Part shown: in pieces, positions 9,360 to 40,885 of the stretch
Layout of the letters: each line of letters opens with the position of its first letter
How positions within the stretch are numbered: the stretch's first letter is position 1
The notes under the pieces: generated by a model
The model's input: the letters and a program-made list of their open reading frames with translations, nothing else
Databases searched by the model: none
Told to the model about the DNA's origin: nothing
NCBI GenBank assembly: GCA_963662285.2
Contig: CAXXMV010000008.1
Location: forward strand, 512,001-576,000
Direction: 5' to 3'
Source: a bacterium
GTDB taxonomy: Bacteria; Hinthialibacterota; Hinthialibacteria; Hinthialibacterales; Hinthialibacteraceae
DNA length: 64,000 nucleotides
Position numbers and translations under genes: made by a program

Positions 9360-11852
9360 TTATCGGAACAATTCCCAATTTTCATAGGATGATGCAGGTA
9401 GATTATCCGAATATGTCAGTATTTCTTTACCTGTATAATAACCAAAGAGATACTCAGCATAGAATTTCCACTCCACTTCATCATCATCCGAAGATACCTG
9501 ATAAAAAGCAAAATTGCCATATTCACGGTCGCCATTTTCAGTCATCAATAGACTCGATAATAGACCGACTGTTTCCTCGGTTACGTTAAATAATGCTTCA
9601 ACCGACTGTTCTGCATCAGGAGCGGACGGCCAACCCATGTCTTCCATCATCAAGACATACATCCATAAGCATTCATAGGCTGCAACATCAAAGGCCCGCG
9701 GCTCATTATCAATGTGCGTAGCGATATCGTTGATAACAACACAGGGTGGAAGGCTTAAATGGTGCGTCTGGTCCACTCCAATTATGGAGGCGGTAAACCG
9801 TAGTTGACTGGCAATCTCCGCAGATTCCGGGTTTTCTAAAATACCGTTATTGAGCGCAGTGGAATCAGTCCCAAACCAGCGGAACTTATTCAAAGAAGAG
9901 TTATCGGGAATAGCAGAGAAAATGTCTGCTATTTCATCATAAGCAATAACAACAATAGCTGTTTTCATGATATTCTGGTTCTGGATGTTATTCTTGAGTT
10001 GATCTACAACGGGGGAGAAATCCGTCGTTCCGATATCATACGAGATGCTTTCGCCAAATTGTCCGCCTAGTTCTTCAAACGCCGTTTTCAAGTTGGAATA
10101 TAAACCTGATCCATAAGTATCATTGCGGTATAGCGCATTGATCTTTGAGTATCCCTGATCTTTAATCAACGCCGCAATCGCTGTGACCTGTTTGTAGTCG
10201 TTCATTACCAGGCGGAAAATGTTATCCTTTTTTGATAGCGTAGTGGCAGTACTGGAAGGAGAAAGAAGCATTATTCCATTTTCCTCAACAAAAGGAGCAA
10301 CTTTTTCCAAAGCGGAACTGGTTACAGGGCCAATGAAATAACGAATGCCCTGGGCGTACATTTCCTGCATCTTTTGCAAGGCCGTATCAGGATCAGTCGC
10401 AGTATCTTCAACCACCAGTTCAACGCTTGAACCGGGCGTATGAACGCGCTTAAAAATTTCGTTAACATGAAGGCTAGCCAATTCCAATGATTTATTGATC
10501 AATTGTCCACCTTCCGCATAATCACCGGATAGAGGCATCAAAGCGCCAATTTTAAGGTATTTATCCAGATTGTCTGGAATATATATCTCGCTGGAGAATT
10601 TCTCACGAACAATGTTGCCGCCAAATAGATAGCAAGAATAGGAACCGGCCGGGGTCCATTTTTGATCTTCTAAATATTGATAAAATCCATATATGGCATT
10701 TATAGAGTCGCCATTTTGATCGAAAAATGGATAACCTTTAAATCCCATAAAAATTGTGGATATTCGAATCAGTTCATTTTTCAAATCATAAGTTCCCTCG
10801 AACTGAGAAATCCCAGCCATCCAGAGTGCATCATAAGAAGCGGATTCGAGAGAAGTCATTTGATAATTAGTTTTTGATATGATCTTGGAATATAAGAGTT
10901 CATCGGTTAATGAATAATGAAAGAAGGGGTAAAACCGCGCGTCAGATGTAGACATTGAGGCCGTAAATTCGACCTGCGCGGCAAAAGCAGAAGCGATGTC
11001 ATCTTGACTAATGATTTCATTCCTGGCAGTTCCATCAGCTCCAAACCAACGAACAGCTTTGAGAATATCTTGGCTGGAAGCGGCTTTAAGTATTTCTGCT
11101 ACCTCATCAAATGAAACAACAACGATTCCTACCTTGGCTTCAGCATTTTCCTGTTGAATAGTATCAACTACATTTGTAAGTTGAGCAATCAAAGTTTGAT
11201 AATCAGTAGTTTGCACATCATAAAAAATCGGTTCTGATAGAGTACCTATTTCTGCGTAACTTGATTGAAACGCAGCGGCGAAGTCCTGACCATAATTATC
11301 ATTTCGCGAAATAAGGACGATATGATCGACATCTTCGGACTGAATAAACTTGGCTAAAGCAACTGACTGCAGGCTATCGTTTGTGCAAAGCCTGAAAATG
11401 TTATCATCCAGCGCCAGAGAGAGCGCCGTGCTGGTTGGTGATATCAAAACGCAGTTATTCTCATCCGCAAACGGTTTGACGCGCAACAGCGCTTCACTCG
11501 AAAAAGGACCTACAAATATTCGGAATCCTGCCTGATATAAAGATTGCAATTTGGTTAATGCAGTTTCCGGGTCTGTACCAGTATCTTCAATTACCAAATT
11601 AATGTGAACCTTTGGATACTCACGCTCAAAGTCTTCCAGTGCAACTTCCAATGTGGCTTTTGCAGCATTCCCTAAATTAACGAGAGAACCTGTTAATGGT
11701 ACTAAAGCGCCGATTGATAGCGTTGTTTCTCCTGGTGGAGCGGGAAAAACGACTTGAGAATTACTCGCGCCCGGTAATCCGATTAAAACGGTAAGCAGAA
11801 TCGGTAAAAAAAGCATACCCATTCTATTGTTCCATCTGCTGCATAAATTCAT
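9360..11852 (-). CDS. Secreted protein with two tandem LivJ-type (type I) solute-binding domains and C-terminal NWELFR motif
   Basis: Duplicated IGALxPL(T/S)G...EDTxTDPxTAL...GPxxS...SPxSTA...IFRLxxND...RNDxYG...RWFGxD units; signal peptide. Confidence 0.88.
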   Translation of the reverse strand: MNLCSRWNNRMGMLFLPILLTVLIGLPGASNSQVVFPAPPGETTLSIGALVPLTGSLVNLGNAAKATLEVALEDFEREYPKVHINLVIEDTGTDPETALTKLQSLYQAGFRIFVGPFSSEALLRVKPFADENNCVLISPTSTALSLALDDNIFRLCTNDSLQSVALAKFIQSEDVDHIVLISRNDNYGQDFAAAFQSSYAEIGTLSEPIFYDVQTTDYQTLIAQLTNVVDTIQQENAEAKVGIVVVSFDEVAEILKAASSQDILKAVRWFGADGTARNEIISQDDIASAFAAQVEFTASMSTSDARFYPFFHYSLTDELLYSKIISKTNYQMTSLESASYDALWMAGISQFEGTYDLKNELIRISTIFMGFKGYPFFDQNGDSINAIYGFYQYLEDQKWTPAGSYSCYLFGGNIVREKFSSEIYIPDNLDKYLKIGALMPLSGDYAEGGQLINKSLELASLHVNEIFKRVHTPGSSVELVVEDTATDPDTALQKMQEMYAQGIRYFIGPVTSSALEKVAPFVEENGIMLLSPSSTATTLSKKDNIFRLVMNDYKQVTAIAALIKDQGYSKINALYRNDTYGSGLYSNLKTAFEELGGQFGESISYDIGTTDFSPVVDQLKNNIQNQNIMKTAIVVIAYDEIADIFSAIPDNSSLNKFRWFGTDSTALNNGILENPESAEIASQLRFTASIIGVDQTHHLSLPPCVVINDIATHIDNEPRAFDVAAYECLWMYVLMMEDMGWPSAPDAEQSVEALFNVTEETVGLLSSLLMTENGDREYGNFAFYQVSSDDDEVEWKFYAEYLFGYYTGKEILTYSDNLPASSYENWELFR

Positions 11853-11918
11853 AAATCTTCTCCATCATTTTTTAATCATACGGTAGATATTCCCTAATAA
11901 TATAAGTATAACTCAAAA

Positions 11919-11970
11919 CTGCTCCTATTGTGAAAAATACTAATCACAGAATTTTTCACAATAGGAGCAG
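11919..11970. terminator. Perfect 20-bp inverted repeat, probable terminator of the cold-shock gene
   Basis: CTGCTCCTATTGTGAAAAAT ... ATTTTTCACAATAGGAGCAG, 60 bp past the csp stop. Confidence 0.6.
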
Positions 11971-12029
11971 AGATTAAAAAGTTAAAAGATTTGATATTAT
12001 TAAGATTCGTGGATGCTAAAAAACATAAA

Positions 12030-12230
12030 TCAGACTATCACTACATTAACCGCTTTGGGACCTTTGTCCCCATCGGTGACATCGTATTCGACTTGGTCGC
12101 CTTCTTGCAGATTTTTGAAACCGTCACCCTTTATTCCACTATAATGAACGAAGATATCTTTGCCCTCTTGTTGTTCAATAAAACCATACCCCTTCTGCTT
12201 GTTGAACCATTTGACTGTCCCGATTAGCAT
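12030..12230 (-). CDS. cspA: Cold-shock protein
   Basis: [13 protein letters not shown] (RNP1), DIFVHYS (RNP2), KGPKAVNV. Confidence 0.96.
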
Positions 12231-12374
12231 TATTACTCTGCTCCTTTTCTCTTATTATGCATTGCCTGAAGTGTTTCAACACAATAAACGGCAGCATTAT
12301 ACATAATATTTGATGAAGCGCTACAGCAGGCGCCGATTATGCAACATTATTACAGGCTATTCTCAGAGATTGGT

Positions 12375-12797
12375 TCAACCAAAAGAGAGACCGGTTAATT
12401 GTTGGCCTTTTTCTTCCCATGCCATTCCTTCTTTAGCCCAGTCCATGACCTGATCGTGAAAACCCGGATCGATAGATAACGCAGTTTGAATCGCATCAAT
12501 TGATTTCTGCTCTTCACTGGTTATTTCGTTATTGGCCAATAATAAAAGGACGCATTGCTGATAAATGAATTTTTTCTGCGCTTCATCCTCGAATAGTTCT
12601 AAACGTTTCTTGATAGATTCGAGCGACTCAAAATCTTCCGATAACGCTTCATCGATTTTGGCGGCGTGCAGATCCATCTTTAATCCGATCAGACGAATTC
12701 GCACGGCTTCCAGTAGATCAAAATTCCTATCGATAGAGGCCAGGTCCCGCAAGATGGTGATAATCTGATATTTTTGGTCTTCAGATAATTTCGACAT
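12375..12797 (-). CDS. TerB-like family protein
   Basis: LASIDRNFDLLE and LLANNEITSEE resemble the two A-D-G-x4-E half-motifs of the TerB fold; AAAGGAG RBS. Confidence 0.6.
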   Translation of the reverse strand: MSKLSEDQKYQIITILRDLASIDRNFDLLEAVRIRLIGLKMDLHAAKIDEALSEDFESLESIKKRLELFEDEAQKKFIYQQCVLLLLANNEITSEEQKSIDAIQTALSIDPGFHDQVMDWAKEGMAWEEKGQQLTGLSFG

Positions 12798-12949
12798 AAG
12801 ATAACTCCTTTGGTTTGAGTGATATAGTTTTTTTTTATCATATTATATAATTTTTACAACATTAATATTACGAATATAATAGAGGCTTTATTCTATAGAT
12901 TTGCTCAGATTAGAGTGGTTTGCATAATAACGCTCTTAGATAGACCACT

Positions 12950-13555
12950 CTATCGATACAATTCATTTTCTTTAATATATTCCTGCACTAGATCAGGAGT
13001 TAGATCAGTAACGGGAAGCCCGTCCTTAATACGTTGACGAATGAGGGAAGAAGAGATATCAAGCAGAGGCATTTCAACATACTGCACACGGGGATTGGGC
13101 ATATTTACTCCATCGGCGCCAATATTAGAACCGGGTCGGGAAAAAATAGCGATATCAAATTCTTGCAGAAGTTTATCGCCTTCTTTCCAAGAGGGAATCC
13201 GGCTTATCCAATCTCCCCCGGTCAACAGTATTATATCGCATCCCGCAAGCTCATTTTTCTGGAAATGACGCAGGGTATCAACCGTATACGAGAAATCCTC
13301 ACGCTCTGCTTCATAAGAGCTCAGTTCAAACCGGGGATTTGCGGTTATCGCCAGACGGAGCATCTCCAAGCGGTGCGCCGCGGGAGCGACTTCGCCTTCA
13401 TCTTTATAACACGTGCGTCCACCGGATGGAACGAATATCACCCTATCAAGCAATAACTTGTCTAACGCCGTTTGCGCCAGAACCATATGGGCTGTATGAA
13501 CCGGATTAAAGCGTCCCCCGTATATTCCAATGCGTTTCTTGTTGTAGTCGTTCAC
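12950..13555 (-). CDS. nadD: Nicotinate-nucleotide adenylyltransferase
   Basis: GIYGGRFNPVHTAH, SYTVDTL, ISSSLIR, YIKENELY. Confidence 0.95.
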   Translation of the reverse strand: MNDYNKKRIGIYGGRFNPVHTAHMVLAQTALDKLLLDRVIFVPSGGRTCYKDEGEVAPAAHRLEMLRLAITANPRFELSSYEAEREDFSYTVDTLRHFQKNELAGCDIILLTGGDWISRIPSWKEGDKLLQEFDIAIFSRPGSNIGADGVNMPNPRVQYVEMPLLDISSSLIRQRIKDGLPVTDLTPDLVQEYIKENELYR

Positions 13556-13566
13556 TCTTCCGCCAT

Positions 13567-13650
13567 GTAGGGTGGGTCACGCTTTACCGACCCACTATAT
13601 AAATAAATACGTAATTGATTCGGTGGATCATAAAACGCGACCCACCCTAC
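13567..13650. repeat. Inverted pair of GTAG-type REPs (REPIN-like doublet)
   Basis: GTAGGGTGGGTCACGCTTTACCGACCCAC ... GGTGGATCATAAAACGCGACCCACCCTAC; same family at 3640 and 20020. Confidence 0.8.
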
Positions 13651-13671
13651 AGGATTGTTATAAACATTATG

Positions 13672-14967
13672 CTATGTTCTGATATGCCCATCACCGTAGA
13701 CGATGAATTTCTGACATGTCAGTTCAACGATCCCCATCGGGCCGCGGGCGTGCATTTTGTCAGTCGAGATGCCCATTTCGGCGCCTAAGCCATACTCGCC
13801 GCCATCAGAAAAACGGGTGGAAGCGTTAATCATAACGGATGAAGAATCCACTTCTCTGAGGAAGCGTTGAGTGGAGGCGTAATCGTTGGATACGATAGAT
13901 TCAGTATGCCGCGATGAATATTTCTCTATATGCTCCAAGGCTTCGTCAAAACTATCGACTATTTTAAGCGCTACGATAAGATCGAGATATTCTTCGCTCC
14001 AATCCTCTTCAGTAGCCGCTTTTAGATCTGGATATAGTTCCAGAGTCTTGGCGCATCCACGAACTTCCACATTTTTCTCTTTGAGATCAGCCAGCAGTTT
14101 TTTGAGTAACTCGCCCGACTGCGCTTTATGCACCAGGAATGTTTCAGCGGCGTTACAGACGCCCGGACGTTGGATTTTGGCGTTCAAACATATATTACGA
14201 GCCATCTGCTCATCAGCGTATTGATCGACGTAAACATGACAGTTGCCGTCATAATGCTTCAAAACCGGAATGGTGGCATGTTCGACAACCGCCTCGATCA
14301 ACGACTTACCGCCTCGCGGGATAATCACATCAACCAATCCCCGCAGACGGCACATGGCTCTAACCGCCTGCCGGTCAGTAGTCTCGATAAACGAAACCGC
14401 CGCTTTGGGCAGACCATTATCAATCATGGCTTCCTGCAACAATTTGGCGAGAACCGTATTGGAATGGATGGCTTCAGAACCGCCGCGCAAAAGACAAGCA
14501 TTGCCCGATTTAAGGCATAAGGCCGCAGCATCAGCAGTTACGTTGGGGCGCGATTCATAGATCAAGCCGATGACGCCCAGGGGAACGCGCATCCGGCCTA
14601 CCCGCATTCCATTAGGGCGGACGCGCAAATCGGTCACTTCTCCGACGGGATCAGGCAGCGCGGCCACTTCTTCCAACATGGCCGCGACAGATTCCAGGCG
14701 GCTGTCAGTCAGTTCCAGGCGATCCAGCATGGCGGAACTGAGACCTTTCTCTTTTCCCGCTTCGAGATCAAACTGGTTTTGCTGCTGGATATCCGGCGCA
14801 CATCGGCGAACAAGCGCCGCCGCTTCACGTAAGGCGCGGTTTTTAACTTCCGTTGAAGTCCGGGCCAATTCGACCGAGGCTTTGCGGGCCTCTTCGGCAA
14901 TGCCTCTAACGTAGGCTTCGACGTCTTTTATGGTTCCATTGGTTGAATCAGACATAATGATCCTCAA
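13672..14967 (-). CDS. proA: Gamma-glutamyl phosphate reductase
   Basis: VPLGVIGLIYESRPNVT, LRGGSEA, PRGG, RPGVCNA, NASTRFSDGGEYGLGAEMGISTDKMHARGPMG. True start probably ATG 14955. Confidence 0.97.
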   Translation of the reverse strand: MRIIMSDSTNGTIKDVEAYVRGIAEEARKASVELARTSTEVKNRALREAAALVRRCAPDIQQQNQFDLEAGKEKGLSSAMLDRLELTDSRLESVAAMLEEVAALPDPVGEVTDLRVRPNGMRVGRMRVPLGVIGLIYESRPNVTADAAALCLKSGNACLLRGGSEAIHSNTVLAKLLQEAMIDNGLPKAAVSFIETTDRQAVRAMCRLRGLVDVIIPRGGKSLIEAVVEHATIPVLKHYDGNCHVYVDQYADEQMARNICLNAKIQRPGVCNAAETFLVHKAQSGELLKKLLADLKEKNVEVRGCAKTLELYPDLKAATEEDWSEEYLDLIVALKIVDSFDEALEHIEKYSSRHTESIVSNDYASTQRFLREVDSSSVMINASTRFSDGGEYGLGAEMGISTDKMHARGPMGIVELTCQKFIVYGDGHIRT

Positions 14968-15062
14968 AATCTGTATGTTTGTAATAAAACTTAAGTAAAG
15001 TGATACTCTGGCTTAGTAATGGTATTTCGTCAAGATAATTGGGTAAAAGTGCTAAAATCCAG

Positions 15063-15098
15063 CCGGGCGCCAAGGGCAGTGTATTTTCTGCCCTTGAT
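15063..15098 (+). repeat. GGCGCCAAGGGCAG-N-CTGCCCTTGAT palindromic repeat
   Basis: Related copies at 19953, 47003, 50682, 50768, 50892 (inverted), 44264 (inverted) and 62344. Confidence 0.75.
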
Positions 15099-15162
15099 TG
15101 AGTCCACCTCTTATTACCAGAATTCCCACCAGTAATCGACATCTTATATTAAGGTGAAAGCG

Positions 15163-16089
15163 CTAGAATCCGGTGAAAATACGCCGGGCGTATTCGCCGC
15201 TCAGTTTTAGCGCTGGTACGGTTGTCATGGTTTTAGGAGTTCCCTTCTCCACCGCCTGTTCCAGAACGATATGAGGTTTGATTCCCGCCTTTAAGAGAAA
15301 GTCGGCCAATGCAATGTAATCGATGTCGCCTTCAGCAAAAGTTTCTGACCATACCCCATCATTGGATTGCCGCAGATGCAACTCAACGATGCGGGATGCA
15401 TAGAGTTTCATGATATCAAACAGAGCAACCTCCGAGTCGCCCGAACCCCGGTATACCCAGTGAGAATCAAGACACAATTTGACGTATCGTGGATCGGTTC
15501 CGATCATCATGTGGTGGAATTCACGGGCGGCGTTTCGCAGTTCTACGTCGTGGTTATGGTATGCCAGAGTTAATCCCATATCCGCCAGTTTTTCGCCCAG
15601 CGTCTCCAGCGACGCCGCTTGAATTCTCAGTTGCCCATCATCTTTATTCTGAGGACCACTCCATTGGATCGGGCTGGGATTGGTGACGATGATTGTGGTT
15701 CCGGCGGATTTTGCTTTTTCTGCAATAGCCAGAACGCTGTCGATGCTCTCGGTCGCACTCTTCTGGTCATGAAGAACGCTGTTGACGTAAAGCGAGCGCA
15801 TTTCAAGACCATTCTTCCGTAATAATGGCGCATATAAATCAATTTGCTCTGGCTCGGTGATCGAAGGCTCCAGTCCATCCATTCCACTGGCGGCGATAGC
15901 TTCGAAACCTTCTTCCAACGACTTATTGAAATCGCGACCGTCTCTACTGAAGTAGACAGTCCAGGAATACTGGTTGGAAGCAATGTGCAGTTTTTTTTCA
16001 CGGGCTGCGCTTTCACCCGCTCCCGCCAAAAAAGCGCCTGCCGCCAGCCCGGTGTATTTAATCATTGTCCGGCGTGATATATAACTCAT
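15163..16089 (-). CDS. Tat-exported sugar phosphate isomerase/epimerase (IolE/xylose-isomerase-like TIM barrel)
   Basis: SRRTMI signal; LAYHNHDVE, LCLDSHW, ELHLRQ, GDIDY, VLEQ. Confidence 0.88.
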   Translation of the reverse strand: MSYISRRTMIKYTGLAAGAFLAGAGESAAREKKLHIASNQYSWTVYFSRDGRDFNKSLEEGFEAIAASGMDGLEPSITEPEQIDLYAPLLRKNGLEMRSLYVNSVLHDQKSATESIDSVLAIAEKAKSAGTTIIVTNPSPIQWSGPQNKDDGQLRIQAASLETLGEKLADMGLTLAYHNHDVELRNAAREFHHMMIGTDPRYVKLCLDSHWVYRGSGDSEVALFDIMKLYASRIVELHLRQSNDGVWSETFAEGDIDYIALADFLLKAGIKPHIVLEQAVEKGTPKTMTTVPALKLSGEYARRIFTGF

Positions 16090-16432
16090 TGTTTTGGTTC
16101 TCCCTTAGTTTCTATAAATTCCATTACATTGGCCTATTCAATCATATCACAATTGACTCGGAAAAGTTGAGTTCTAATGCCTTCAAATGCAAAATAGATA
16201 CGGCTTGTTAGAATAACCTAATTTATAAAAAATCTGTATCAGGTAAAAAAGGATACCTATCTCATCAAGACCTTGTTGTGCTTATTGATTTCTTTTAATA
16301 TAAATGGATCATTACGGTTCTATCCCAATCGTGTACGGATTAACACATTCTTATTAATAGGTGTTCAATTCGTATAAGCAGGTATATGAAAAAATCTCCT
16401 GCAAAAAAACATCTTCCAAAAAGGGGAGCATT

Positions 16433-17815
16433 ATGAGTGAATCAAAACTTTCCCGGCGTATTTTTTTAATGGGAAGCGCTGCGGCGACGATGGCCGGTTG
16501 CGCAACTACCAGTTCCATTCCGAGCCTGAAACGGTTGGGATACAAATCTCCTAACGAAAAATTGAATATGGCTGCTATCGGAGCAGGCGGCAAGGGCACG
16601 TCAGATATTGGCCAATGCGGCGATTTGGGCGAAAACGTTATTGCGCTAGCCGATCCAGATGCGAAAACAGCTAATACTTCGATCCAGAGATTCACTGGCG
16701 CTACTGTTTATCAGGATTTCCGCCAAATGCTGGACAAGGAAAAGAATATTGATGCCTGCACAATTTCTACTCCTGACCACGTTCACGCTGTGGCAGCCAT
16801 GGCATGTATGGAACGCGGCATCAATGTTTATGTACAGAAACCATTGACCCGTACCATCTGGGAAGCCCGCAAATTGACTCTGGCCGCCAGAAAATACGGC
16901 GTCGCCACTCAAATGGGCAACCAGGGACACTCCGGCGACGGCGTTCGCGATATGTGCGAATTGGTCTGGTCGGGCATTGCTGGCGATATCACTGAAGTTC
17001 ACGCCTGGACTAACCGTCCAGTATGGCCTCAGGGCATCGAGGGCGTCTTTGCTGATGGTAAACCTGGACTGCTTCCTGAAGAAGATATTCCAGATAATAT
17101 TGATTGGGATGCATGGATTGGACCTGCGAAATATCGTCCTTACAACTCAAAATACGCTCCATTCAACTGGCGTGGATGGTGGGACTTCGGCGGCGGCGCA
17201 CTAGCAGACATGGCCTGCCATATTCTCGATCCAGCCAACATGGCCTTATGTCTCGGCGCTCCAACAAGCGTTGAGTGTCTCTATGAAAAAGACAACAACG
17301 ACCAGACCTTCCCCAATGAAGCCAGAATTCGCTTTGAGTTCCCACGTCGTGGAAGCATGCCAGCTCTAAAACTATATTGGTACGACGGCAACCTGCATCC
17401 TCCGATACCTGAAGGCGTTAAAGACTTCAAAATCAGTGATGGCTCCAGTGGTTCAATCTTCATCGGCAGCAAAGGCGTTCTGGCGACAGGAACCTATGGC
17501 GGCGGCTCACGCTTGATTGCCGGCGAAAACATGAAAGATTTCCAAAAACCACAACAAATCCTCCCACGCTTACCAGGGAAGGAAGACGACTACAAACAGA
17601 AAATCGACTGGCTGCGCGCATGCAAGGGCGGCGCTCCCGCAGGCTCGAACTTTGAATATTCCGGCCCCTTCAGCGAATGGATTGTAATGGGCAACCTGTG
17701 CTTGAAATTCCCCGGCCAGAAACTGCTGTGGGATGCTCCCAACGCACGCTTCACTAATAACAGTGCAGCCAACAAATGGGTTAAACCAGATTACCGCAAA
17801 GGTTGGACATTGTAA
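16433..17815 (+). CDS. Tat-exported Gfo/Idh/MocA oxidoreductase
   Basis: SRRIFL signal after GGGAG RBS; IGAGGKG, STPDHVH, VYVQKPL, QMGNQG, WRGWWDFGGGALADMACH. Confidence 0.93.
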   Translation: MSESKLSRRIFLMGSAAATMAGCATTSSIPSLKRLGYKSPNEKLNMAAIGAGGKGTSDIGQCGDLGENVIALADPDAKTANTSIQRFTGATVYQDFRQMLDKEKNIDACTISTPDHVHAVAAMACMERGINVYVQKPLTRTIWEARKLTLAARKYGVATQMGNQGHSGDGVRDMCELVWSGIAGDITEVHAWTNRPVWPQGIEGVFADGKPGLLPEEDIPDNIDWDAWIGPAKYRPYNSKYAPFNWRGWWDFGGGALADMACHILDPANMALCLGAPTSVECLYEKDNNDQTFPNEARIRFEFPRRGSMPALKLYWYDGNLHPPIPEGVKDFKISDGSSGSIFIGSKGVLATGTYGGGSRLIAGENMKDFQKPQQILPRLPGKEDDYKQKIDWLRACKGGAPAGSNFEYSGPFSEWIVMGNLCLKFPGQKLLWDAPNARFTNNSAANKWVKPDYRKGWTL

Positions 17816-17845
17816 TTTCACCCAACTAGCTAACAACAATTATTC

Positions 17846-17877: not shown

Positions 17878-17892
17878 ATAGGAATGTTTTTT

Positions 17893-19876: not shown

Positions 19877-19903
19877 TCTTCTGAAAAAATAAATTACACT
19901 GAG

Positions 19904-23030: not shown

Positions 23031-23921
23031 CTATTCAAATAAAGCCCAATTATCCAGTCCGGCGTCTGCTAGTTTGGTCATTTCGTAGGTTCCTGAAAAG
23101 GTTTTGGATACCAGATTGGAAACGTCTACGGTGAATTCCCAGGTTCCTGCTATATGAGTATTATCATCATTGCCCTGCCCTGTACCACTCAGGGTGAAAG
23201 TTGTTTCACCAACTATGGGAAGTTCAACAGGTTCAGTAGTATAGGTAAAATCAAATTCTTTCTGTTGTGAATAAGAGAAAAGTCCGGCCAACGCCAGCAT
23301 TTGGGCATTAGAAGACCCGGTTGGAGCATAGTTGCCCATCAGGGTTCCATCGGGATTCATGGTCACTTCGCCGGTCCAGTCGATATTGGCGCCAGTTAGA
23401 GTAATTTCCCACACGCCAGCCAACGCTGCTCCGGGAGTTCCGGGATCAAAACCATCTCTGGTGAGGATGAATGATTTTCCATCTGAATCGCTAATGTTGC
23501 CATCTGGAGTAGTATAAGTTTCTAAATTCTTCCATACGCCGACCACCATATTAGCGTCATCTGATATCATGCCTGATCCAGTCACAACAAGTTTAACAGA
23601 TATGGCGCCATCTGCATCCAAGGCTGTTCCATTGCCAACTCCGGTATATAAAAGTTGTCCATCTGCCAGAGCGGTAAACTTACCAGTATGACCCACGTCA
23701 AAAATATACTCGGTTTCACCAATTATGTACGGATAGGTTTCCGAAAAAACAGTATTACCATTGTTACTAATAGTAACTATACTTTGTTCGCCTCCCTCGA
23801 TATCCGTCTCTAGATTCCAATCGCCCTCAAGTTGATCAACCTGAGCCCAAACAGGCGACAGAGAAATAAGAATCCCTGCGCAAACCATCATAAGAAAAGC
23901 ATTGCGTTTGTTCAGATACAT
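23031..23921 (-). CDS. Secreted beta-rich acidic protein with C-terminal DNWALFE motif
   Basis: GGAGG RBS before ATG 23921; signal peptide ending VWA-Q; internal GxW repeats (EGDWN, VGVWK, AGVWE, AGTWE). Confidence 0.8.
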   Translation of the reverse strand: MYLNKRNAFLMMVCAGILISLSPVWAQVDQLEGDWNLETDIEGGEQSIVTISNNGNTVFSETYPYIIGETEYIFDVGHTGKFTALADGQLLYTGVGNGTALDADGAISVKLVVTGSGMISDDANMVVGVWKNLETYTTPDGNISDSDGKSFILTRDGFDPGTPGAALAGVWEITLTGANIDWTGEVTMNPDGTLMGNYAPTGSSNAQMLALAGLFSYSQQKEFDFTYTTEPVELPIVGETTFTLSGTGQGNDDNTHIAGTWEFTVDVSNLVSKTFSGTYEMTKLADAGLDNWALFE

Positions 23922-24289
23922 AAAAAAACCTCCATTAATAATTTTGAGGTTAGTTAATAGCAAAAGATTTGCCATAATATATAAATAATAAAAATATCAC
24001 TTAATCGTATCAAATATACCATGAAATACATAAAATATTTACATGTTCAATAATACAAATAATAGATTAATTCATCTTTTGTACTACACTGTAATCCTGG
24101 GATTTGTGAATCTGAATTTAGAGTGATTTCTAGATGGATAACAATAAATAAATAAATATATTTATTGTTATAGGTATAAATCTATAAGGATAAGTTACTT
24201 AAAATCAATAAAAATGAGAATCAGAAGGCAAAATACTCCCTTTCATGTAAGAGAACAGTAATTCATGCCATAAATACCATTGCAACATA

Positions 24290-32758: not shown

Positions 32759-32807
32759 ACTAGTAATTATAGACCATATAATATAAATATTTATTAATAA
32801 ATCAAAT

Positions 32808-33773
32808 TCATGTAATTTGAAGCAATACTTTACCCGCGCCGGGACGTGAAGCGCATTGCCACGCTTCTAATGCTTTATCGATAGGATAAGTTGCTTCAAT
32901 AATTCTATCGAGCCACAGCACGTCTTTTTCCAGCAATGAAAGCGCTGGAGCGAATAATCCGCAACGCGATCCGACAACGGTGATTTCATCTATCACTATA
33001 GGCGTTAAGTCTAACGCATCTGACCGGGCCATAGTACTTTTCAGAACAATAGTCCCTCTTGGACGCGCCAAACGCATGGCCATTTCCAATCCGGATGATC
33101 TGCCGGTAGCTTCGACGACCACATCCCAGCTTTTATGCGATTTTTCAGGTAAATCTTTCTCTAAACAGGTTGAAATGCGATCACTTACGACAGCCAGGTT
33201 TTCTTCATGATGCCCCACCAGCAGGATTTCTCCCTCATGGCGGCATGCAAAGATCATCGCGGTCAAAAGCCCTAGTTTACCGTCGCCCAGAATACAAACG
33301 CGGCTGGAAGGAGTTATCAGAATTTGCTCAAAAATCTCTAAAACAGCCGCTATAGGTTCAGTAAAAACAGCCCACCGGTCAGGAACCGGGTTTGGAACCT
33401 TATAAAGATTGGCAATTGGCAAGGTCATCCATTCAGCCATACAGCCGTTACGGTTAAAAATCCCTAATACAGAACGGTGAAAACAATGCCTCTCCATCCC
33501 TTTGCGGCACCATTCACAATCTCCGCAACCAGCATTGATTTCTCCAACTACCCGCTCACCAGCCTTCCAATGGTCAATATTATGAGCGATCTCTCCAACG
33601 AATTCATGCCCTGGAATCCCTTCAAATCCCATATATCCCTTAGCCAATTCTAAATCAGTCCGGCAAATTCCTGCCATTCGTATGCGAATCAGAGCTTCAC
33701 CTTCGGGCAATACTGGTTTAGGATAGTCGTTAATAATTTCAATTTGATTTAATTTTAGAATAATTGTCTTCAT
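32808..33773 (-). CDS. Zinc-dependent MDR alcohol dehydrogenase
   Basis: GICRTD, GHEFVG, CGDCEWC...HC, GDGKLG. Confidence 0.92.
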   Translation of the reverse strand: MKTIILKLNQIEIINDYPKPVLPEGEALIRIRMAGICRTDLELAKGYMGFEGIPGHEFVGEIAHNIDHWKAGERVVGEINAGCGDCEWCRKGMERHCFHRSVLGIFNRNGCMAEWMTLPIANLYKVPNPVPDRWAVFTEPIAAVLEIFEQILITPSSRVCILGDGKLGLLTAMIFACRHEGEILLVGHHEENLAVVSDRISTCLEKDLPEKSHKSWDVVVEATGRSSGLEMAMRLARPRGTIVLKSTMARSDALDLTPIVIDEITVVGSRCGLFAPALSLLEKDVLWLDRIIEATYPIDKALEAWQCASRPGAGKVLLQIT

Positions 33774-33938
33774 GCTATTTCACTTTATCACTTACTTGAT
33801 AGAATCATATATTATAAACATATATGAATTATTGAGTTAATTATACTATATCGGTTAACAAAAGTTTATATGTATTAAATACGCTGGATTTTATAAGTAC
33901 AACTCGAGTTATTTCAAATATCCTTTTGCGGAGTATTT

Positions 33939-34271
33939 ATGTTGATAAGTTGGAACTATTTAAACTCGATTACTATCGTTTCTTTCGAAATGGATGAGTT
34001 GCGTGATCCTGAACCATTACGCAATATCGTTGCCTCGCATATTAAAGAGGGGCGCAAGGACTTTTTGATCAACCTTGAGAATGTGATCTATATCAGCAGT
34101 TCTGTATTGGGATTATTCATAACTTTTCACAAGGAACTTAAAGAAATTGACGGATGCGTCAAACTGGTCAACGCCCAGCCCAGCGTATCCAGTTTATTGG
34201 AAATGACCCGACTTGATAAAATTCTGGAATTATTCAACGATATAAAAATCGCTATTAAATCCTTTGAATGA
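33939..34271 (+). CDS. STAS-domain anti-sigma factor antagonist
   Basis: INLENVIYISSSVLGLFI, LLEMTRLDKI. Confidence 0.9.
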   Translation: MLISWNYLNSITIVSFEMDELRDPEPLRNIVASHIKEGRKDFLINLENVIYISSSVLGLFITFHKELKEIDGCVKLVNAQPSVSSLLEMTRLDKILELFNDIKIAIKSFE

Positions 34272-34327
34272 TTTTTTGCCTCTTCTACACTATTAACCTA
34301 ATCCATTATAATAGCATAACAAAAGAA

Positions 34328-34355
34328 GAGGTCTTCATGTTTCCACGAAGACCTC
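34328..34355. terminator. Hairpin between convergent STAS and sigma genes
   Basis: GAGGTCTTC ... GAAGACCTC. Confidence 0.65.
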
Positions 34356-34395
34356 GTCGTTATTTTTATTATTTTCAAGGTATTTATAGATTGCT

Positions 34396-35844
34396 CTAAT
34401 TAAGAAAATCTCTAATTTCTCTAGCGCGTATCGGATGACGCAATTTGCGGATAGCCCGCTGCTCGATTTGACGAACCCGTTCACGAGTGATGCCGAAACG
34501 TTTGCCAATGTCACCTAATTTCCATACTTTTCTGTCAGGCATCAATCCATAACGTAGACGTAAAATAGTCTCTTCACGCTCGGATAACTGGCCAAGAATA
34601 CCTTCAATGCGGTTGCTTAATACCTGTCCTGAAAATTCGGATTCTGCCGAAACAGAATTTACATCGGTAATCATTTCACCAATCGTCGTTTCCCGGTCGT
34701 CTCTAATAGGAGTTTCAAGAGAAAGCGGATCTTGTTGCCAACCCATCAGATCAGAGATTCTGTTCTCTTCCATATCCAGATGTCTGGCCAATTCACCCAC
34801 TGACGGTTCCCGCCCAAGATCATGGGTCAATTTAGTATTTGCGCGATCAACAATGGCAATTTCATCGGTGACTCCGGTTGGGAGGCGAATTGTACGCCGT
34901 TGTTGCTTAACCGCACGGGAAATGCTCTGCCGAATCCACCAGACAGAATATGTACTGAATTTTGTTCCGCGTTGATAATCGAATTTATCAACAGCTCGCG
35001 TCAGTCCCAAGTTGCCTTCTTGAATCAGGTCTAACATCGGAACTCCGCAATGTTTATATCTTTTGGCGACCGATACGACCAATCGCAAATTACCCCGGAT
35101 CATATCCTGCCGGGCCTGGCGAATCAATTCTGAACCTTTTTGCACTGATTCATGGCAAATATTAACTCGCTCGAAATCATCGCCATACTCTTCTATCAAT
35201 TGATCGTGTTCTTTGACCGGGGTTTCTTGATAACGGAAATATACAAAATTCAAGCGTTTAGCCATTACCCATAATACGCTTACATCAAGATCCATCTCAC
35301 AAAACAATTTGAACCATTTCTGATATCGGTTTTCAAGTTGTCTTTTACTTAATCCACCTTGATCCTCTTCATTGAATCCATTGTGGAACTGACGGATTTT
35401 ACGCTTCATCTCTACAATTTCTTTGGCCAATTCTGTTTTGCGTCGCGTTCTTCCAGCATCAGGATTCCGAAATGTGTTATGGGGAGCGCGAGTTCCTTTT
35501 TCCAAATCTGATACAATATCTTCTATCGCATTGATAACTGCTCGTGAACGTGATAATCCTTTAGCGAGAAGATACCGTCCATTTTCCATTTTCTCGTATA
35601 TCGACGATTCCTCTTCACGAGTCAGGAGAGAGTAGTGGCCAATCTCTCGTAAATACTCTTTGACAGGATTATAAGTATTACGTTCGGTGGTTCGTGAACG
35701 TCGGGCTTGATTGGATGATTTTGGATTACTCTTCTGCTGATCAACATCCACAGGCTTCTCTTCTAAAGCTACACCACCTGCATTATCAACAAAATCCATT
35801 AAGTCCACAGGATTATGCGTCTCGTTTAAGTTTACAGTATACAT
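34396..35844 (-). CDS. RpoD/SigA-family sigma-70 factor lacking a clear region 1.1
   Basis: [66 protein letters not shown]. Confidence 0.92.
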
Positions 35845-36313
35845 GATAGTCGCCTCGGGTTACCGGGATGATCATTCAGTTGATCTATTCAAAGAGCAAT
35901 TGGTATACCACTTTTTCTATTCATGATAATATGACAATATTTGTAAGGTTTAATTCACAAATAATTACCACAAAGCAATTTTTCACAATAATTCTGTTCC
36001 ATTTTGACACAATCAATTTAAAACTCGTCTCATTTCCTGGAAATTATCTCATTATTGTTCTTAAAAAAAATGAAGAACTTATATTGATAAATATAAATAT
36101 TTATCAATATTTATTAATTTAGTTTTAATTTTGATTATTTTTTGTATCATCATTTGTAACTATGTATCCGAAACGGTTACATATAGAGTGGCACATAGGG
36201 GGTTTGTATTATAGCCTTTTTAAAAAATAATGTTCTTCTGAAAACAAACATAATTCAGAGAAGCATATACAATCAATAGATTTTTCAATTCTAATAGAAT
36301 AATATAAGGATGA

Positions 36314-37912
36314 ATGAAGATGTGGAATATCACCAAATACGCTTGGTTTAAAAACGCTAAACCTATGTTAAATTTCAATATGATATGTATTAATAGATAT
36401 TATAACTTCATAAATTTAATTATTTTCCTCTGTTTTTTTAGTGGTTGCAGTTCTCCCTCTTCCAGAGACCTATTACAACTTGCTAAAGATGATTTGCTTA
36501 AACGAAATTGCATGCAAGTTCTCAAGCGTCTTGAAAAACCATTTAACCTCCATGACGATAACCAGAGTCGTTTGATAATACGCGCCATGGCTCTTGCCTG
36601 GATGGAGCAATATGAAGAAGCGGCAAAAGAACTCAATATTTTTATTAATAGTCTGCCTCCCCAAACACAGATTAAATATATATATCCACGTCATTTGGCC
36701 AACACTAAAGAGAGTCCCATTCGTGAAGAATTTGATAGGAAAACGTTTTCAGCAGATGACATGAGATATCTATGGCGAGTTTTGTGGCAGTATCGTATAG
36801 CGAATCGAGTAACAAATGAATGCAAAAGCGATATGGAAAAGACGACGGCGCTTCTAGATTTCGTTTATCGTCATACTCGTTTTGACACGGTTGAACAACA
36901 CCATATTAAATGCAAGCCGTTTCATACATTGATACTAGGACAGGGATTATGCGATGATCTTTCTTGGACGTTAAATATGTTATTACGATCCGTATCGGTG
37001 CCTACGCTTCGGCTTATTCTGCATAAAGATCCCAATAAGATAGAAAGTTCGCATACTCTAAGCGCAGTTAATATTGATAATCATTGGATTCCCGTTGATG
37101 CATCATACGGCATAATTGTTCAGGATCCGGAGAGCGCCGAACTGAATGGTATCCCAAAGTATTTCAAACTTAATCCATCCCAGGAATCTCTAGAAAAGTT
37201 AGACATGCCTTTGCCTGAGTGGGAACCGTATTTAAATGAACTCGAAAATTATGGAAAACTGAAAGAATTGAAAACTGATATTAGCAATTATCATCCATTT
37301 ATTGATTATGAAGGAGAAGCATGCATGCCTCGTTTTTTGATACTCGCCAATCGAACAAAGAGAATCTTCTCTCTTCCTACGCTTGGAAGTATTTATCCAT
37401 TCATAGTAATTCCCAAATTTGATCCAAAAAGTAGGGTGATTTCTAATTGGAGAGCTGTTAATATACAATATATTTTCAATTTAAGCAGGGAAATAAATGA
37501 AGCACAGCGTACCCTGGCGAAAATTTCATTCGGTCATTTAAAATTCCTCCAGCATGGACGAATGCTGCTCTTGGATGGGAAACCTGATCAAGCGGAAACT
37601 GAATTTCTTAAGATTCTCGATCTGAATAAAGATCTGCCGCCTGACGCGAAAATAGACCTGGATTATTATCTTGCTCTTTGCGCTTATGAAAAAGAAGATT
37701 ACGCCAAAGCTTACCGTGAGTATGAAGAATTTATCCAAAAACATCCACGATCAAGCTGGGTAAATCGAGTCCAATATCAGATGGCTTTAATTGCACATGC
37801 GCAGAATCGCGAAGATGATTGGAAATCACTAATCAATGAATGCAATCAAAATAATATGGGCGCCTTATTCCAATGGAGCGTTAAATATAAGATCGGCCCG
37901 ACCATCTATTAA
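36314..37912 (+). CDS. Putative lipoprotein with transglutaminase-like core and TPR repeats
   Basis: FFSGC lipobox-like; GLCDD...SHTL...WIPVD Cys-His-Asp triad pattern; C-terminal TPR (YYLALCAY..., HPRS). Start uncertain. Confidence 0.7.
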   Translation: MKMWNITKYAWFKNAKPMLNFNMICINRYYNFINLIIFLCFFSGCSSPSSRDLLQLAKDDLLKRNCMQVLKRLEKPFNLHDDNQSRLIIRAMALAWMEQYEEAAKELNIFINSLPPQTQIKYIYPRHLANTKESPIREEFDRKTFSADDMRYLWRVLWQYRIANRVTNECKSDMEKTTALLDFVYRHTRFDTVEQHHIKCKPFHTLILGQGLCDDLSWTLNMLLRSVSVPTLRLILHKDPNKIESSHTLSAVNIDNHWIPVDASYGIIVQDPESAELNGIPKYFKLNPSQESLEKLDMPLPEWEPYLNELENYGKLKELKTDISNYHPFIDYEGEACMPRFLILANRTKRIFSLPTLGSIYPFIVIPKFDPKSRVISNWRAVNIQYIFNLSREINEAQRTLAKISFGHLKFLQHGRMLLLDGKPDQAETEFLKILDLNKDLPPDAKIDLDYYLALCAYEKEDYAKAYREYEEFIQKHPRSSWVNRVQYQMALIAHAQNREDDWKSLINECNQNNMGALFQWSVKYKIGPTIY

Positions 37913-37918
37913 TCTCTA

Positions 37919-39016
37919 TCAGGGCGTTAAAGCCAGATGGCAGTTGGCGCAAGTGGGGATTTCGTCGATCCGTCCACTGGCATGCAAGTCACGCAGTTTT
38001 TGATATTCCGGGCCAGTCCAGATTTCTTCAACCGACTTGCCGTGAATATTGCCCACCGTCAATGTTCGAGCGGAATCAACGCAACATACCGTCACCACGC
38101 CATCGGGATGCACAAACATACGCTGCCATAATTGAGGACAACAGAATTTCTTTTTATTATTATTCTCTGTTTCATCCTTAGCTGTATTGATCGAATCAGC
38201 TGATTTATCTTCGGCGCCGGCCTGGCTGTTGTGTTCAATATAATCGACCCATGCTACTGCATCGACAATTGGTTCGAAGAGTTGTTTGAAATCTTCCCAC
38301 TCCTGATCATTCTCTTTCATGCGCACCATTGAGATGCGGGTAAATGGTTTGTTGGTTCCCATTTCGTCGCGGATTTCATGGAAACGCTTGATGTTTCTAA
38401 GGACTTTATCGTAATTGGCGTTGACCCGGATTTTGTTGTAATGATCCCTATAGGGAGAATCAAAAGAAAAGAAGAGTTTATCCAAACCTGCTTCAATTAA
38501 CTTACGTGAACTTTTTTCGGTTAACAGGGTGGCGTTGGTATTGAACATTACATCTACCAAGCCTTTTTCTTTAGCGTAACGGATCATATCAATAAGTAGT
38601 GGATTCATCATTGGTTCGCCGAGATAATTGAATTTAAGCGAACAAAGTCCGTTTTCCGCCCCTTCATCTATCAAGCGCTTGAATAATATAAAGTTAGTGT
38701 TTTTAACTTCCCAGAATTTCCCGTCATTTAACATGTCGGTACGCGGGCACATGGTGCAACGCAGGTTGCAATTGGATGTGGCTTCGACATCAAGATGCAC
38801 CGGGAACTTGCCTACATGATGAGTTATGGGATTATTTTCCCATTTTTCACGGTATTCCCAGTACTCTGGAGGTAGACTCTCTTCCCATTGCTTGGTTTTA
38901 TCGCTTTTTATCTGATGATAATTATGATCAACTTTGGTTTCCACGTTCGGAGTTTGAGCAGCGTCTTGTTCTAAGGTATTTGAATCTGTCATTAACTTTC
39001 CTCGCAATCGTCTCAT
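37919..39016 (-). CDS. Radical SAM/SPASM domain protein
   Basis: CNLRCTMC, GEP, NTNA; SPASM/twitch CPQLW...DGVVTVCC...GNI...CANC. Confidence 0.92.
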   Translation of the reverse strand: MRRLRGKLMTDSNTLEQDAAQTPNVETKVDHNYHQIKSDKTKQWEESLPPEYWEYREKWENNPITHHVGKFPVHLDVEATSNCNLRCTMCPRTDMLNDGKFWEVKNTNFILFKRLIDEGAENGLCSLKFNYLGEPMMNPLLIDMIRYAKEKGLVDVMFNTNATLLTEKSSRKLIEAGLDKLFFSFDSPYRDHYNKIRVNANYDKVLRNIKRFHEIRDEMGTNKPFTRISMVRMKENDQEWEDFKQLFEPIVDAVAWVDYIEHNSQAGAEDKSADSINTAKDETENNNKKKFCCPQLWQRMFVHPDGVVTVCCVDSARTLTVGNIHGKSVEEIWTGPEYQKLRDLHASGRIDEIPTCANCHLALTP

Positions 39017-39208
39017 TTATTATGACTTGAATTATTAAGAATATTACTATCCAAGTGAGTTATAATTTTACTAGTATGGCTTTCATTAATATTATCGACT
39101 ACAACTATTGAACCTTTATTTTCGCCATAATAATGATGAAGCATTAAAGTCAGCACAGATTTCAAGTAAATTATTGTAAAATCTAAAAAATAACAATAAA
39201 CCACATAA

Positions 39209-40015
39209 ATGGAAGATATTATGACCTTAGCATTTTCAAGCAATAGTTCAGCAGAAACGCCGCCTCTGGTTCTAATTCATGCATTTCCTCTAAATAGAGA
39301 AATGTGGAAGCATCAGCTCAGTGGATTAGAAGATACGATACAGGTGATTGCTCCAGATATGCCGGGATTTGGAGAATCAGAACCACTTACCGAATCTCCC
39401 GGTATGAGCGCCTATGTCAGGTCATTATTATCATGGCTTGATGAGCAAGACATTAAGCAGGCGATTTTCGCCGGGTGTTCGATGGGGGGGTATATTCTTT
39501 TTGAACTGTGGCGCATAGCGCCTGAACGGGTAAAAGGTCTTATATTGTGCGATACGCGAGCTGAAGCGGATGCTCCTGAAATGCGCGAAAACCGTTTACT
39601 AACGATCCAACAGGTTCTTGAAGATGGTCCCATAGCGCTGGCGAACGCCATGCCGCCCAAACTGGTCAGTTCAGCAACGCTGAAAAAACAACCTGAATTG
39701 ATGGAGAAACTTAAGCAGGCTATTTTGAATAATCCAACCAAGGGAATAGCGAATGCCTTGCAAGCGCTGGCTGACCGACCTGATTCAACCAATGACCTGT
39801 CTTCAATTAACATACCGGTTCAGATACTTGTCGGCGAGGATGACCAATTGACTCCGCCCGACCTGGCTAAATCAATGCACGGGAAGATTCCCAATTCTCA
39901 CCTGGGAATTATTAAAGACGCCGGACATTTATCGCCATTGGAACAGCCGGAACAAGCCAATACTATTATTCGTACTTTCCTGTTGGAATCGGGTTTGATT
40001 TTGGGGGACGAGTGA
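39209..40015 (+). CDS. Alpha/beta fold hydrolase (PcaD-like)
   Basis: LIHAFP, PDMPGFGES, GCSMGG, GEDD, AGHLS. Confidence 0.9.
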   Translation: MEDIMTLAFSSNSSAETPPLVLIHAFPLNREMWKHQLSGLEDTIQVIAPDMPGFGESEPLTESPGMSAYVRSLLSWLDEQDIKQAIFAGCSMGGYILFELWRIAPERVKGLILCDTRAEADAPEMRENRLLTIQQVLEDGPIALANAMPPKLVSSATLKKQPELMEKLKQAILNNPTKGIANALQALADRPDSTNDLSSINIPVQILVGEDDQLTPPDLAKSMHGKIPNSHLGIIKDAGHLSPLEQPEQANTIIRTFLLESGLILGDE

Positions 40016-40111
40016 ATTTGAGATGGCGAATTATCCATTAGTTAAAAGAGGAAAGGGGGAACGAAGCAAAAGCCTCATCCCCCCTAAAAGACCAATTTTA
40101 TCATCTAAGTA

Positions 40112-40885
40112 TTAAAACAGAGACCAATCCGAAACTGAGGTCGTTTCGGGTCCGTAAACGAGAAAATTATCGATAATCATCGTATTGCCTAGCGTCCCGG
40201 CGACAGCGTTATCCCAAATGACCAGAGCATTTATACCATCAGTTTCCTCGGTTGGGAGACGTCGGTAACCATATTCCTCGGCGATCATTGTTTCCTCAGC
40301 ATCACCTTCTTTTTGGAAATAGACATCGAATATCCATTCTACAGGATTGATTTCCATACGAATATGAATATTCTTGCCATCCTGGTAATTCAATTCGGCG
40401 AGAGCCTTATACTCTCCTCCGCCTGCCCAATCTCCATCGCGAACATCAATCAGGCCCTCTGCATAGGTGCGAATCATGGTGCCCTGTTCGTTGTAATTGG
40501 GTACAGGATTACCATCAATCAACTCGAAATTAAGGCTGTCGCTGAGGCAGATGCCAACGTCCATAGTACCTGCGGCGTCACCGACGAACTTCCAGTCAAA
40601 AGAAACTGAAAAATTTTCTTGCAGGGTTGGAATCTCCAAAGTGACCCACCGACCTCCGGCGCTGACATCGCTGATAACGAGTTGCTCGTTTTCAATGACA
40701 ATGTCATCAGTCAAAACATTTGGATTAGCGTTGATCCACTGAGCAGTTGCACCTGCTGGTTGCCCGACTACCGGACCATTCACATAACCTTCCGCCGCAG
40801 AAAAGTCAGCGGAATAATACACCTGAGCTTGAACGCCTGTTGCGCCAAGCAATAAAGCAATTACTACTACAAAGACTTTCTTCAT
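40112..40885 (-). CDS. Secreted acidic beta-sandwich (lectin/LamG-like) protein with C-terminal DWSLF motif
   Basis: MKKVFVVVIALLLGATGVQA signal peptide; beta-strand pattern; ends TTSVSDWSLF. Confidence 0.8.
   Translation of the reverse strand: MKKVFVVVIALLLGATGVQAQVYYSADFSAAEGYVNGPVVGQPAGATAQWINANPNVLTDDIVIENEQLVISDVSAGGRWVTLEIPTLQENFSVSFDWKFVGDAAGTMDVGICLSDSLNFELIDGNPVPNYNEQGTMIRTYAEGLIDVRDGDWAGGGEYKALAELNYQDGKNIHIRMEINPVEWIFDVYFQKEGDAEETMIAEEYGYRRLPTEETDGINALVIWDNAVAGTLGNTMIIDNFLVYGPETTSVSDWSLF

Follow-up and report, generated by a model that had tools for sequence, protein, structure and literature searches.

Why should three secreted proteins that are not homologous to one another finish in almost the same few residues? 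The question is raised by a stretch of bacterial DNA of 64,000 nucleotides (assembly GCA_963662285.2, contig CAXXMV010000008.1, positions 512,001 to 576,000; referred to below as the window), in which three minus-strand open reading frames (ORFs) encode proteins with the C-termini ...PASSYENWELFR, ...DAGLDNWALFE, and ...TTSVSDWSLF. From comparison of sequences and from structure models, we propose with moderate confidence that this shared end, here called the tail, is a putative and previously undescribed tag: a short linear stretch at the C-terminus that would serve Sec-exported proteins for sorting or docking.

When the 64 kb are translated in six frames, the core of the tail, [DN]W.LF, turns up exactly three times, each time at one of these three C-termini, and the looser ending [DNE]W.[LIVM][FYW].{0,2} is found on the same three only among the 440 stop-to-stop ORFs of at least 50 amino acids. 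When random 12-residue ends were drawn from the 44 complete proteins of the window in 20,000 rounds of shuffling, 0.0004 strict matches were expected per 44 proteins, against the three observed. The leucine and phenylalanine codons differ among the DNA sequences of the three tails, the stop codons are TAA, TAG, and TAA, and the DNA downstream of the three tail-coding ends is unrelated; the likeness of the tails is thus selected at the level of the protein and is not an artefact of a repeat or terminator. The tail is a real and robust feature, and chance is excluded as its source. The initial annotation had reported ORFs at 9360, 23031, and 40112 that end in ENWELFR, DNWALFE, and SDWSLF, and these were recovered both in the ORF check and in the six-frame scan. 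It had also assigned a Sec-type signal peptide to each of the three proteins, as is indeed visible in their N-terminal sequences, and had called them non-homologous, which agrees with their folds: a tandem periplasmic-binding-protein fold, a double avidin-like barrel, and a lectin or carbohydrate-binding module (CBM) sandwich (Table 1).

A consensus was derived from 51 distinct tails, anchored on the tryptophan as position 0: [TAS]-x-[VIL]-x-[DNE]-W-x-[LIVM]-[YFH]-x(0-1)-COOH. The pattern initially read from the window, small-small-hydrophobic-x-[DN]-W-x-L-F, is upheld by this larger set. Of the 51 tails, 50 have T, A, or S at position -5, 42 have V, I, or L at -3, and 37 have D, N, or E at -1; on the other side of the tryptophan, L, I, V, or M takes position +2 in 50 tails and Y, F, or H position +3 in 48. 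The chain ends directly at +3 in 31 tails and continues for one residue in 19 and for two in a single one, so that at most one residue follows in 50 of the 51, this residue being E, R, Q, P, D, H, or N. As 20 of the 51 tails have such extra residues, a free carboxylate on the aromatic residue is seemingly not essential. The linker that precedes the motif is rich in proline, glycine, serine, threonine, and alanine.

The three cargoes were each followed into their families. P0003 (cargo 3) matches no Pfam family at E ≤ 0.1; its AlphaFold2 (AF2) model, with a mean predicted local distance difference test score (pLDDT) of 86.4, is matched by Foldseek to the lectin domain of calreticulin, to legume lectins, and to the CBM of the sialidase BT_1020. 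All 17 proteins of its family (41-84% identity) end in a tail of the form ...G-P-x-x-V-x-[DEN]-W-x-[LIV]-[FYH], with W254 invariant. P0002 (cargo 2), read as an ORF at 23031-23975, has homologues that begin at Met19, which places the gene at 23031-23921. It too is without a Pfam family at E ≤ 0.1, and in the ESM Atlas it scored at most 0.85 with no named family. Its AF2 model (mean pLDDT 72.7) consists of two eight-stranded barrels, for which Foldseek returned a single-chain dimeric streptavidin (E 1e-6) and single avidin barrels (TMt about 0.58). All 11 members of this family share W292. Judged from these alignments, the tail is kept under selection, its tryptophan being invariant in the P0002 and P0003 families. 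P0001 (cargo 1) was recognized by Pfam as Peripla_BP_6 (1.7e-63) and ANF_receptor (5.8e-56), in two stretches each. The tryptophan-containing tail is kept in 5 of its 27 relatives (36-73% identity), which end in ...NWELYR, ...QWELYP, ...GWELYP, ...DWSLYQ, and ...EWSLYR, and is absent from 19, among them proteins named from Firmicutes and from one archaeon. In the family alignment, these tail-less homologues from outside the lineage stop about 15 residues sooner.

In the AF2 models of both P0002 and P0003, the last nine residues (288-296 and 249-257, respectively) have pLDDT values below 50 and no secondary structure, and the strands that precede them are confidently predicted. The folded domain stops 4-8 residues ahead of these nine, and the last blocks of the two models, with mean pLDDT values of 37 and 25, show no packing. 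The tail is thus predicted to be a disordered appendage outside the folded domain.

The tail goes together with a signal peptide. In the window, it is present on 3 of the 14 proteins with a Sec-type hydrophobic N-terminus, on none of the 8 Tat-type (twin-arginine translocation) proteins, and on none of the 22 cytoplasmic or polytopic ones, in line with the initial statement that no cytoplasmic or Tat protein of the window ends in this way. The threshold for a hydrophobic N-terminus was passed by 43 of 52 tail-bearing sequences; the remaining nine comprise five N-terminal fragments, one sequence with an over-long start, and three with visible signal peptides just below the threshold. Among the sequences compared, the tail appears to be found only on signal-peptide proteins. 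At least five other proteins of the window have a Sec signal and no tail (an FG-GAP protein, an esterase, a class-D-like transpeptidase fold, a GH127 enzyme, and one unknown protein), so the tail marks a subset of the exported proteins, as a discriminating signal would require.

Further tailed proteins came from a search for related loci with the seven closest relatives of P0003, in which two loci (L001 and L002) were confirmed out of 46 pattern matches. L001 encodes, at 1090-1881, a tailed paralogue of P0003 with a signal peptide and 44% identity. In L002, a CBM9-like protein (6399-7502, ending in ...AIPLWEIFK) and a beta-helix protein (7904-9571, ending in ...AVQEWSLY), both with a signal peptide, adjoin a relative of P0003 at 10001-10774; three tailed genes thus lie side by side between 6399 and 10774. 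With these, the tail is present on at least five unrelated folds: the tandem periplasmic-binding protein, the double avidin-like barrel, the lectin/CBM sandwich, the beta-helix, and the CBM9-like fold. When the neighbours in the window were compared with those in L001 and L002, only the lectin-like family and a GT4 glycosyltransferase (30% identity) recurred, and no conserved operon was seen. The three tailed genes of L002 are followed by a gene with a prepilin-type N-methylation motif (10794-11465); pilin-like genes may simply be common in such genomes and this adjacency meaningless.

The named relatives, namely L002 and the source of P0032, are labelled Candidatus Omnitrophota, with which the ESM Atlas cluster of a neighbour gene weakly agrees. 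On these two names and one weak lead, the tail would seem to be restricted to one lineage. A link to Sumerlaeota or OLB16 that had been drawn in the initial annotation found no support, the only named relatives being those labelled Candidatus Omnitrophota; in a paper on OLB16 (PMC9324843), a search by term shows 'C-terminal' 0 times.

Is the tail a known signal under another guise? Neither Pfam (E ≤ 0.1) nor NCBIfam (E ≤ 1) covers it in whole P0001-P0003, and six C-terminal pieces of 40 residues gave 0 NCBIfam matches at E ≤ 10; the look-up in NCBIfam that had been proposed at the outset thus returned no existing model for the tail. Likewise correct was the early remark that the tails contain no transmembrane helix and no basic cluster and are far shorter than the C-terminal domain (CTD) of the T9SS (type IX secretion system). 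No description of the tail was found in the literature under motif, sorting-signal, Omnitrophota, or OLB16 terms, subscription papers and bioRxiv supplements lying outside that search, and the term-matched text of PMC9324843 and PMC8542988 makes no mention of it.

The T9SS CTD is, in the excerpted text of PMC11285876, a folded seven-stranded immunoglobulin-like sandwich. Like the tail, it is C-terminal, sits on Sec-exported soluble periplasmic intermediates, has no membrane helix, and serves glycan-binding or -degrading cargo. The CTD is a folded beta-sandwich of about 70-100 residues, with a Pfam model (PF18962) that spans 75 positions; in the tail only about nine residues are conserved, disorder is predicted for it, and Pfam gives no match. 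Membership was rejected, since PF18962 does not match P0001-P0003 at E ≤ 0.1 and the last nine residues are disordered in the AF2 models. Tripartite sorting signals consist, in the part of bioRxiv 10.1101/2023.06.07.544157 that we draw on, of a motif, a transmembrane segment, and an Arg-rich cluster. These signals (LPXTG/sortase, PEP-CTERM/exosortase, GlyGly-CTERM/rhombosortase, and MYXO-CTERM, among others) share with the tail a short C-terminal motif on many unrelated signal-peptide proteins and a restriction to certain lineages, homologues elsewhere being without the tag or having another. They differ from it in that the tailed proteins end 0-2 residues past the motif, which leaves no room for a transmembrane segment or basic cluster, and have no NCBIfam match; LPXTG, PEP-CTERM, GlyGly-CTERM, and MYXO-CTERM were all rejected on this ground. 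The WxL domain is characterized in the relevant section of PMC9772566 as a fold of 160-190 residues with two buried WxL motifs, more than 91% of the known examples being in Firmicutes. It resembles the tail in its C-terminal position, its Trp-x-Leu, and its occurrence on signal-peptide proteins, which it is thought to hold at the cell surface. The tail, in contrast, is unstructured and has a single W-x-L, and with no Pfam WxL match at E ≤ 0.1, this membership was rejected as well. Without a transmembrane segment or Arg cluster, without a fold, and with one W-x-L only, the tail falls outside the definitions of the tripartite signals, the T9SS CTD, and the WxL domain.

The C-terminal beta-signal of outer-membrane proteins, which is read by BAM, the machinery for beta-barrel assembly, acts in the periplasm and has a terminal or near-terminal aromatic residue with hydrophobic residues upstream; it is the last strand of a membrane barrel, with alternating hydrophobic positions. 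The tail likewise has an aromatic residue at or beside the C-terminus and hydrophobic residues just upstream. It differs in that its cargoes are soluble folds and that it lies outside the fold. Its hydrophobic positions, -3, 0, +2, and +3, do not alternate, and Y, F, or H, although present at +3 in 48 of the 51 tails, is the final residue in only 31. That the tail could be the last strand of an outer-membrane barrel was rejected, the cargoes being a soluble periplasmic-binding-protein fold, avidin-like barrels, and a lectin sandwich, with the tail outside the fold. The C-terminal signal of the type I secretion system, of which the substrates have no signal peptide, was discarded because an N-terminus resembling a signal peptide is present on the three proteins of the window and on every relative with a complete N-terminal end. 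In eukaryotes, folded proteins that are unrelated to one another carry peroxisomal targeting signal 1 (PTS1), a linear signal of very few residues at their extreme C-terminus, without a membrane segment and read by a soluble receptor. Compared by description, PTS1 is the nearest analogue in architecture; it differs in domain of life, compartment, and sequence, and has three residues instead of nine, and no homology is implied.

The wider family of the lectin-like cargo offers a further comparison. Run against 1.84 billion representatives, a profile of the P0003 family matched 1540 proteins at E ≤ 0.001, and the best 150 of the 1540 were inspected. Fifteen of these 150 carry the tail, 14 by pattern and P0066 (...DSWELMD) by eye; all 15 are close single-domain relatives of P0003 or fragments of these, and none of the other 135 ends in the tail. 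Nineteen distant multidomain relatives, chosen by eye for T9SS-like ends and a length below 1000 amino acids, all match the T9SS sorting domain Por_Secre_tail (PF18962) at E ≤ 0.001 at their own C-terminus. The gathering score of this model is reached by 18 of them, the exception being P0095 with 26.4 bits against 27, and Sialidase-like_CBM (PF22585) is also present on 18 of the 19. In other lineages, the lectin-like domain is thus the cargo of a C-terminal sorting system, and the tail is likewise located at the end of the protein. Five close relatives of P0003 (P0072, P0096, P0100, P0117, and P0162) have in place of the tail a longer C-terminal extension that ends in ...AKFYRxxx or ...LFGRIKK. 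It matches no Pfam family and may, from its sequence, be another unnamed C-terminal module at the same position. In P0067 and P0070, the lectin-like domain is apparently fused to the C-terminal part of a serine recombinase/resolvase; these fusions are probably chimeras of gene calling or assembly.

How might such a tail act? After Sec export and removal of the signal peptide, the folded cargo would expose its flexible tail in the periplasm. A receptor specific to the lineage and located at the outer membrane, or close to it, would there bind the nine residues; they would probably be taken up as an extra beta-strand, or else in a hydrophobic groove with room for the tryptophan, the leucine, and the last aromatic residue. 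If the tail is taken to be a strand, positions -5, -3, -1, and +3 would lie on one face and positions 0 and +2 on the other; with conserved residues on both faces, insertion into a groove or at the edge of a sheet would be suggested rather than a surface contact. The receptor would hand the cargo to the cell surface or hold it there, a role that would be that of the T9SS CTD for related glycan-binding modules in other phyla. In this more specific form, the tail would be the address label of a so far unknown envelope pathway in Omnitrophota-like diderms: a linear C-terminal signal of nine residues that has neither a membrane anchor nor a fold and for which a translocon or anchoring factor of the outer membrane would be the dedicated reader, a proposal that we put forward tentatively, as plausible rather than probable.

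Several observations weigh against the proposed tag. The lectin-like family contributes 33 of the 51 tails, and the consensus consequently leans on that family. The excess of tails on Sec proteins over the rest of the window (3/14 versus 0/30) reaches a one-sided Fisher P of only 0.027, and that over the Tat proteins alone (3/14 versus 0/8) is not significant. Three of the 27 relatives of P0001 (P0034-P0036; 37-38% identity) keep the extension without its tryptophan and end in ...TSNVLSAPELK, ...SAPYLR, and ...PFAEQFK; this extension is either a decayed or a re-specified tail, and the loss of the tryptophan means that the motif is not indispensable to the P0001 family. For export across the outer membrane, a tandem solute-binding protein is unusual cargo, and docking in the periplasm fits it equally. 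The three tailed loci of the window have no neighbour gene in common, and the relatives with which the T9SS comparison was made (19 of 150) were chosen by eye. The analysis identified neither a receptor nor a protease or translocon for the tail, and no sortase-like cognate enzyme was seen among the genes of the window.

The alternative that survives best is a docking peptide without a role in transport: the tail would tether its proteins non-covalently to a shared partner in the periplasm or envelope (a scaffold, a transporter, or the peptidoglycan, for example) and would hold them in place or build capture complexes, in the manner of a dockerin but as a linear motif. That all five cargo folds are binding modules or glycan-directed speaks for it, as do the normally periplasmic location of solute-binding proteins, the exposed and disordered state of the tail in the AF2 models, and the adjacency of the three tailed genes in L002. 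No scaffold or partner was seen, however, and the distant lectin-like relatives are T9SS cargo, that is, surface-located or extracellular. Although the present data fit sorting and docking alike, we regard docking without transport as rather unlikely.

The tail could also serve as a recognition tag for a protease of the Prc/Tsp/Ctp or HtrA type, which processes C-termini or acts in quality control and reads its substrates by a PDZ domain; the tail would then set turnover or maturation and not location. PDZ proteases read non-polar C-termini, and a hydrophobic aromatic C-terminus on an unstructured end would suit them. What is recognized in such substrates is a free non-polar C-terminal residue; 31 of the 51 tails end on the aromatic position, and the other 20 have one or two residues past it, often charged, so that a free carboxylate on the aromatic residue does not seem to be required. 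Conservation moreover reaches nine residues inward, with an invariant tryptophan and a near-invariant small residue at -5, and the PDZ-type degrons known to us are less specific than that. As it would in addition be hard to explain why a degron was retained for long on five unrelated families, a protease tag is considered improbable. A role intrinsic to the cargo, for instance as a fold-back lid, a ligand mimic, or a swapped strand in oligomers, is harder still to credit. All cargoes are binding proteins, of which an aromatic peptide could fill the binding site, and a monomer AF2 model cannot reveal strand swapping; but such a role presupposes, in every one of five unrelated folds, a pocket that matches the same nine residues, the tail does not pack in the models, and homologues from outside the lineage work without it. 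Chance, or the by-product of a shared DNA element (repeat, terminator, or insertion site) that overlaps the gene ends, can be dismissed almost with certainty, as the shuffling, the differing codons and stops, and the unrelated downstream DNA all oppose it and substitutions within families track amino-acid classes; an origin of the tail from a DNA repeat or terminator was rejected on the same differences in codons, stops, and downstream DNA.

With regard to a reader of the tail as a sorting or docking tag, P0208, encoded at 36314-37912 on the plus strand of the window, is a lipoprotein-like protein with an FFSGC lipobox, a Transglut_core domain, and C-terminal tetratricopeptide (TPR) repeats, the latter with a sub-threshold match to BamD. 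Its family is common in Omnitrophota and Planctomycetota in the ESM Atlas and hence not specific to the tail. P0208 and the SppA encoded beside P0002 are possible candidate readers, named from neighbourhood and generic TPR repeats alone; no binding is claimed.

Table 1 Tailed proteins of the window and their terminal features (positions in the window)
Feature	Position	Strand	Basis or remarks
Cargo 1, P0001, 830 aa, secreted tandem type-I periplasmic-binding-protein fold with tail	9360..11852	-	Pfam and relatives
Cargo 1 tail SSYENWELFR	9363..9392	-	Extension of about 15 residues past the end of the tail-less homologues P0039-P0044
Cargo 1 signal peptide, about residues 1-32, cleavage site approximate	11757..11852	-	Arg-containing n-region, then hydrophobic run MLFLPILLTVLIGLPG
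Cargo 2, P0002/P0020, 296 aa from Met19, two avidin/streptavidin-like beta-barrels	23031..23921	-	AF2 and Foldseek
Cargo 2 tail AGLDNWALFE	23034..23063	-	W292 invariant in family; residues 288-296 disordered in model
Cargo 2 signal peptide MYLNKRNAFLMMVCAGILISLSPVWA, then QV	23844..23921	-	Position read by eye
Cargo 3, P0003, 257 aa, lectin/Sialidase-like-CBM-type beta-sandwich	40112..40885	-	AF2 and Foldseek
Cargo 3 tail TTSVSDWSLF	40115..40144	-	W254 invariant in family; residues 249-257 disordered in model
Cargo 3 signal peptide MKKVFVVVIALLLGATGVQA, then QV	40826..40885	-	Position read by eye

The window has other features of its own. It is rich in Tat-signal enzymes, with three sulfatases, two Gfo/Idh/MocA oxidoreductases, a xylose-isomerase-like TIM barrel, and a phosphotriesterase-family protein, at coordinates that include 7816-9267, 44427-45839, and 59909-61321. 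A multihaem cytochrome-beta-propeller fusion is encoded at 3-1871, its C-terminus lying beyond the window, and a hydrazine-synthase-alpha-like propeller protein at 3893-5860. No complete protein among these Tat enzymes and propeller proteins carries the tail. Two copies of an insertion sequence (IS) of about 1.5 kb are present in direct orientation at 47146-48652 and 54204-55710, with identical rve/HTH transposase ORFs of 388 amino acids and terminal inverted repeats of about 50 nucleotides each. The genes between them, for a Tat-signal Gfo/Idh/MocA oxidoreductase, a URO-D-like protein, and a GH127 enzyme, give a layout that resembles a composite transposon. An intergenic direct repeat of 85 nucleotides with 89% identity occurs at 47003-47087 and 50682-50766, one copy being just upstream of the first IS copy.

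More than once, new envelope machinery has been reached by way of a C-terminal sorting tag, as with sortase, exosortase, rhombosortase, and the T9SS. Every bacterial tag described so far to our knowledge is either a motif with a membrane helix or a folded domain, and a linear tag of nine residues on soluble Sec-exported proteins would be of a different design. If the envelope pathway proposed above exists, the sorting signals of bacteria would gain a new class, with machinery that is likewise new, and a sizeable share of the secretome would be on the cell surface, as 3 of the 44 window proteins and three adjacent genes in a relative carry it. The tail would give a direct handle on its reader, through phylogenetic profiling or peptide pull-down, and could in this way point to new machinery in a phylum that, as far as we know, has almost no cultured members and a poorly understood envelope. 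Annotation would gain as well: the tail flags likely surface or docked proteins among the hypothetical proteins of metagenomes, and a small hidden Markov model of it could join the family libraries.

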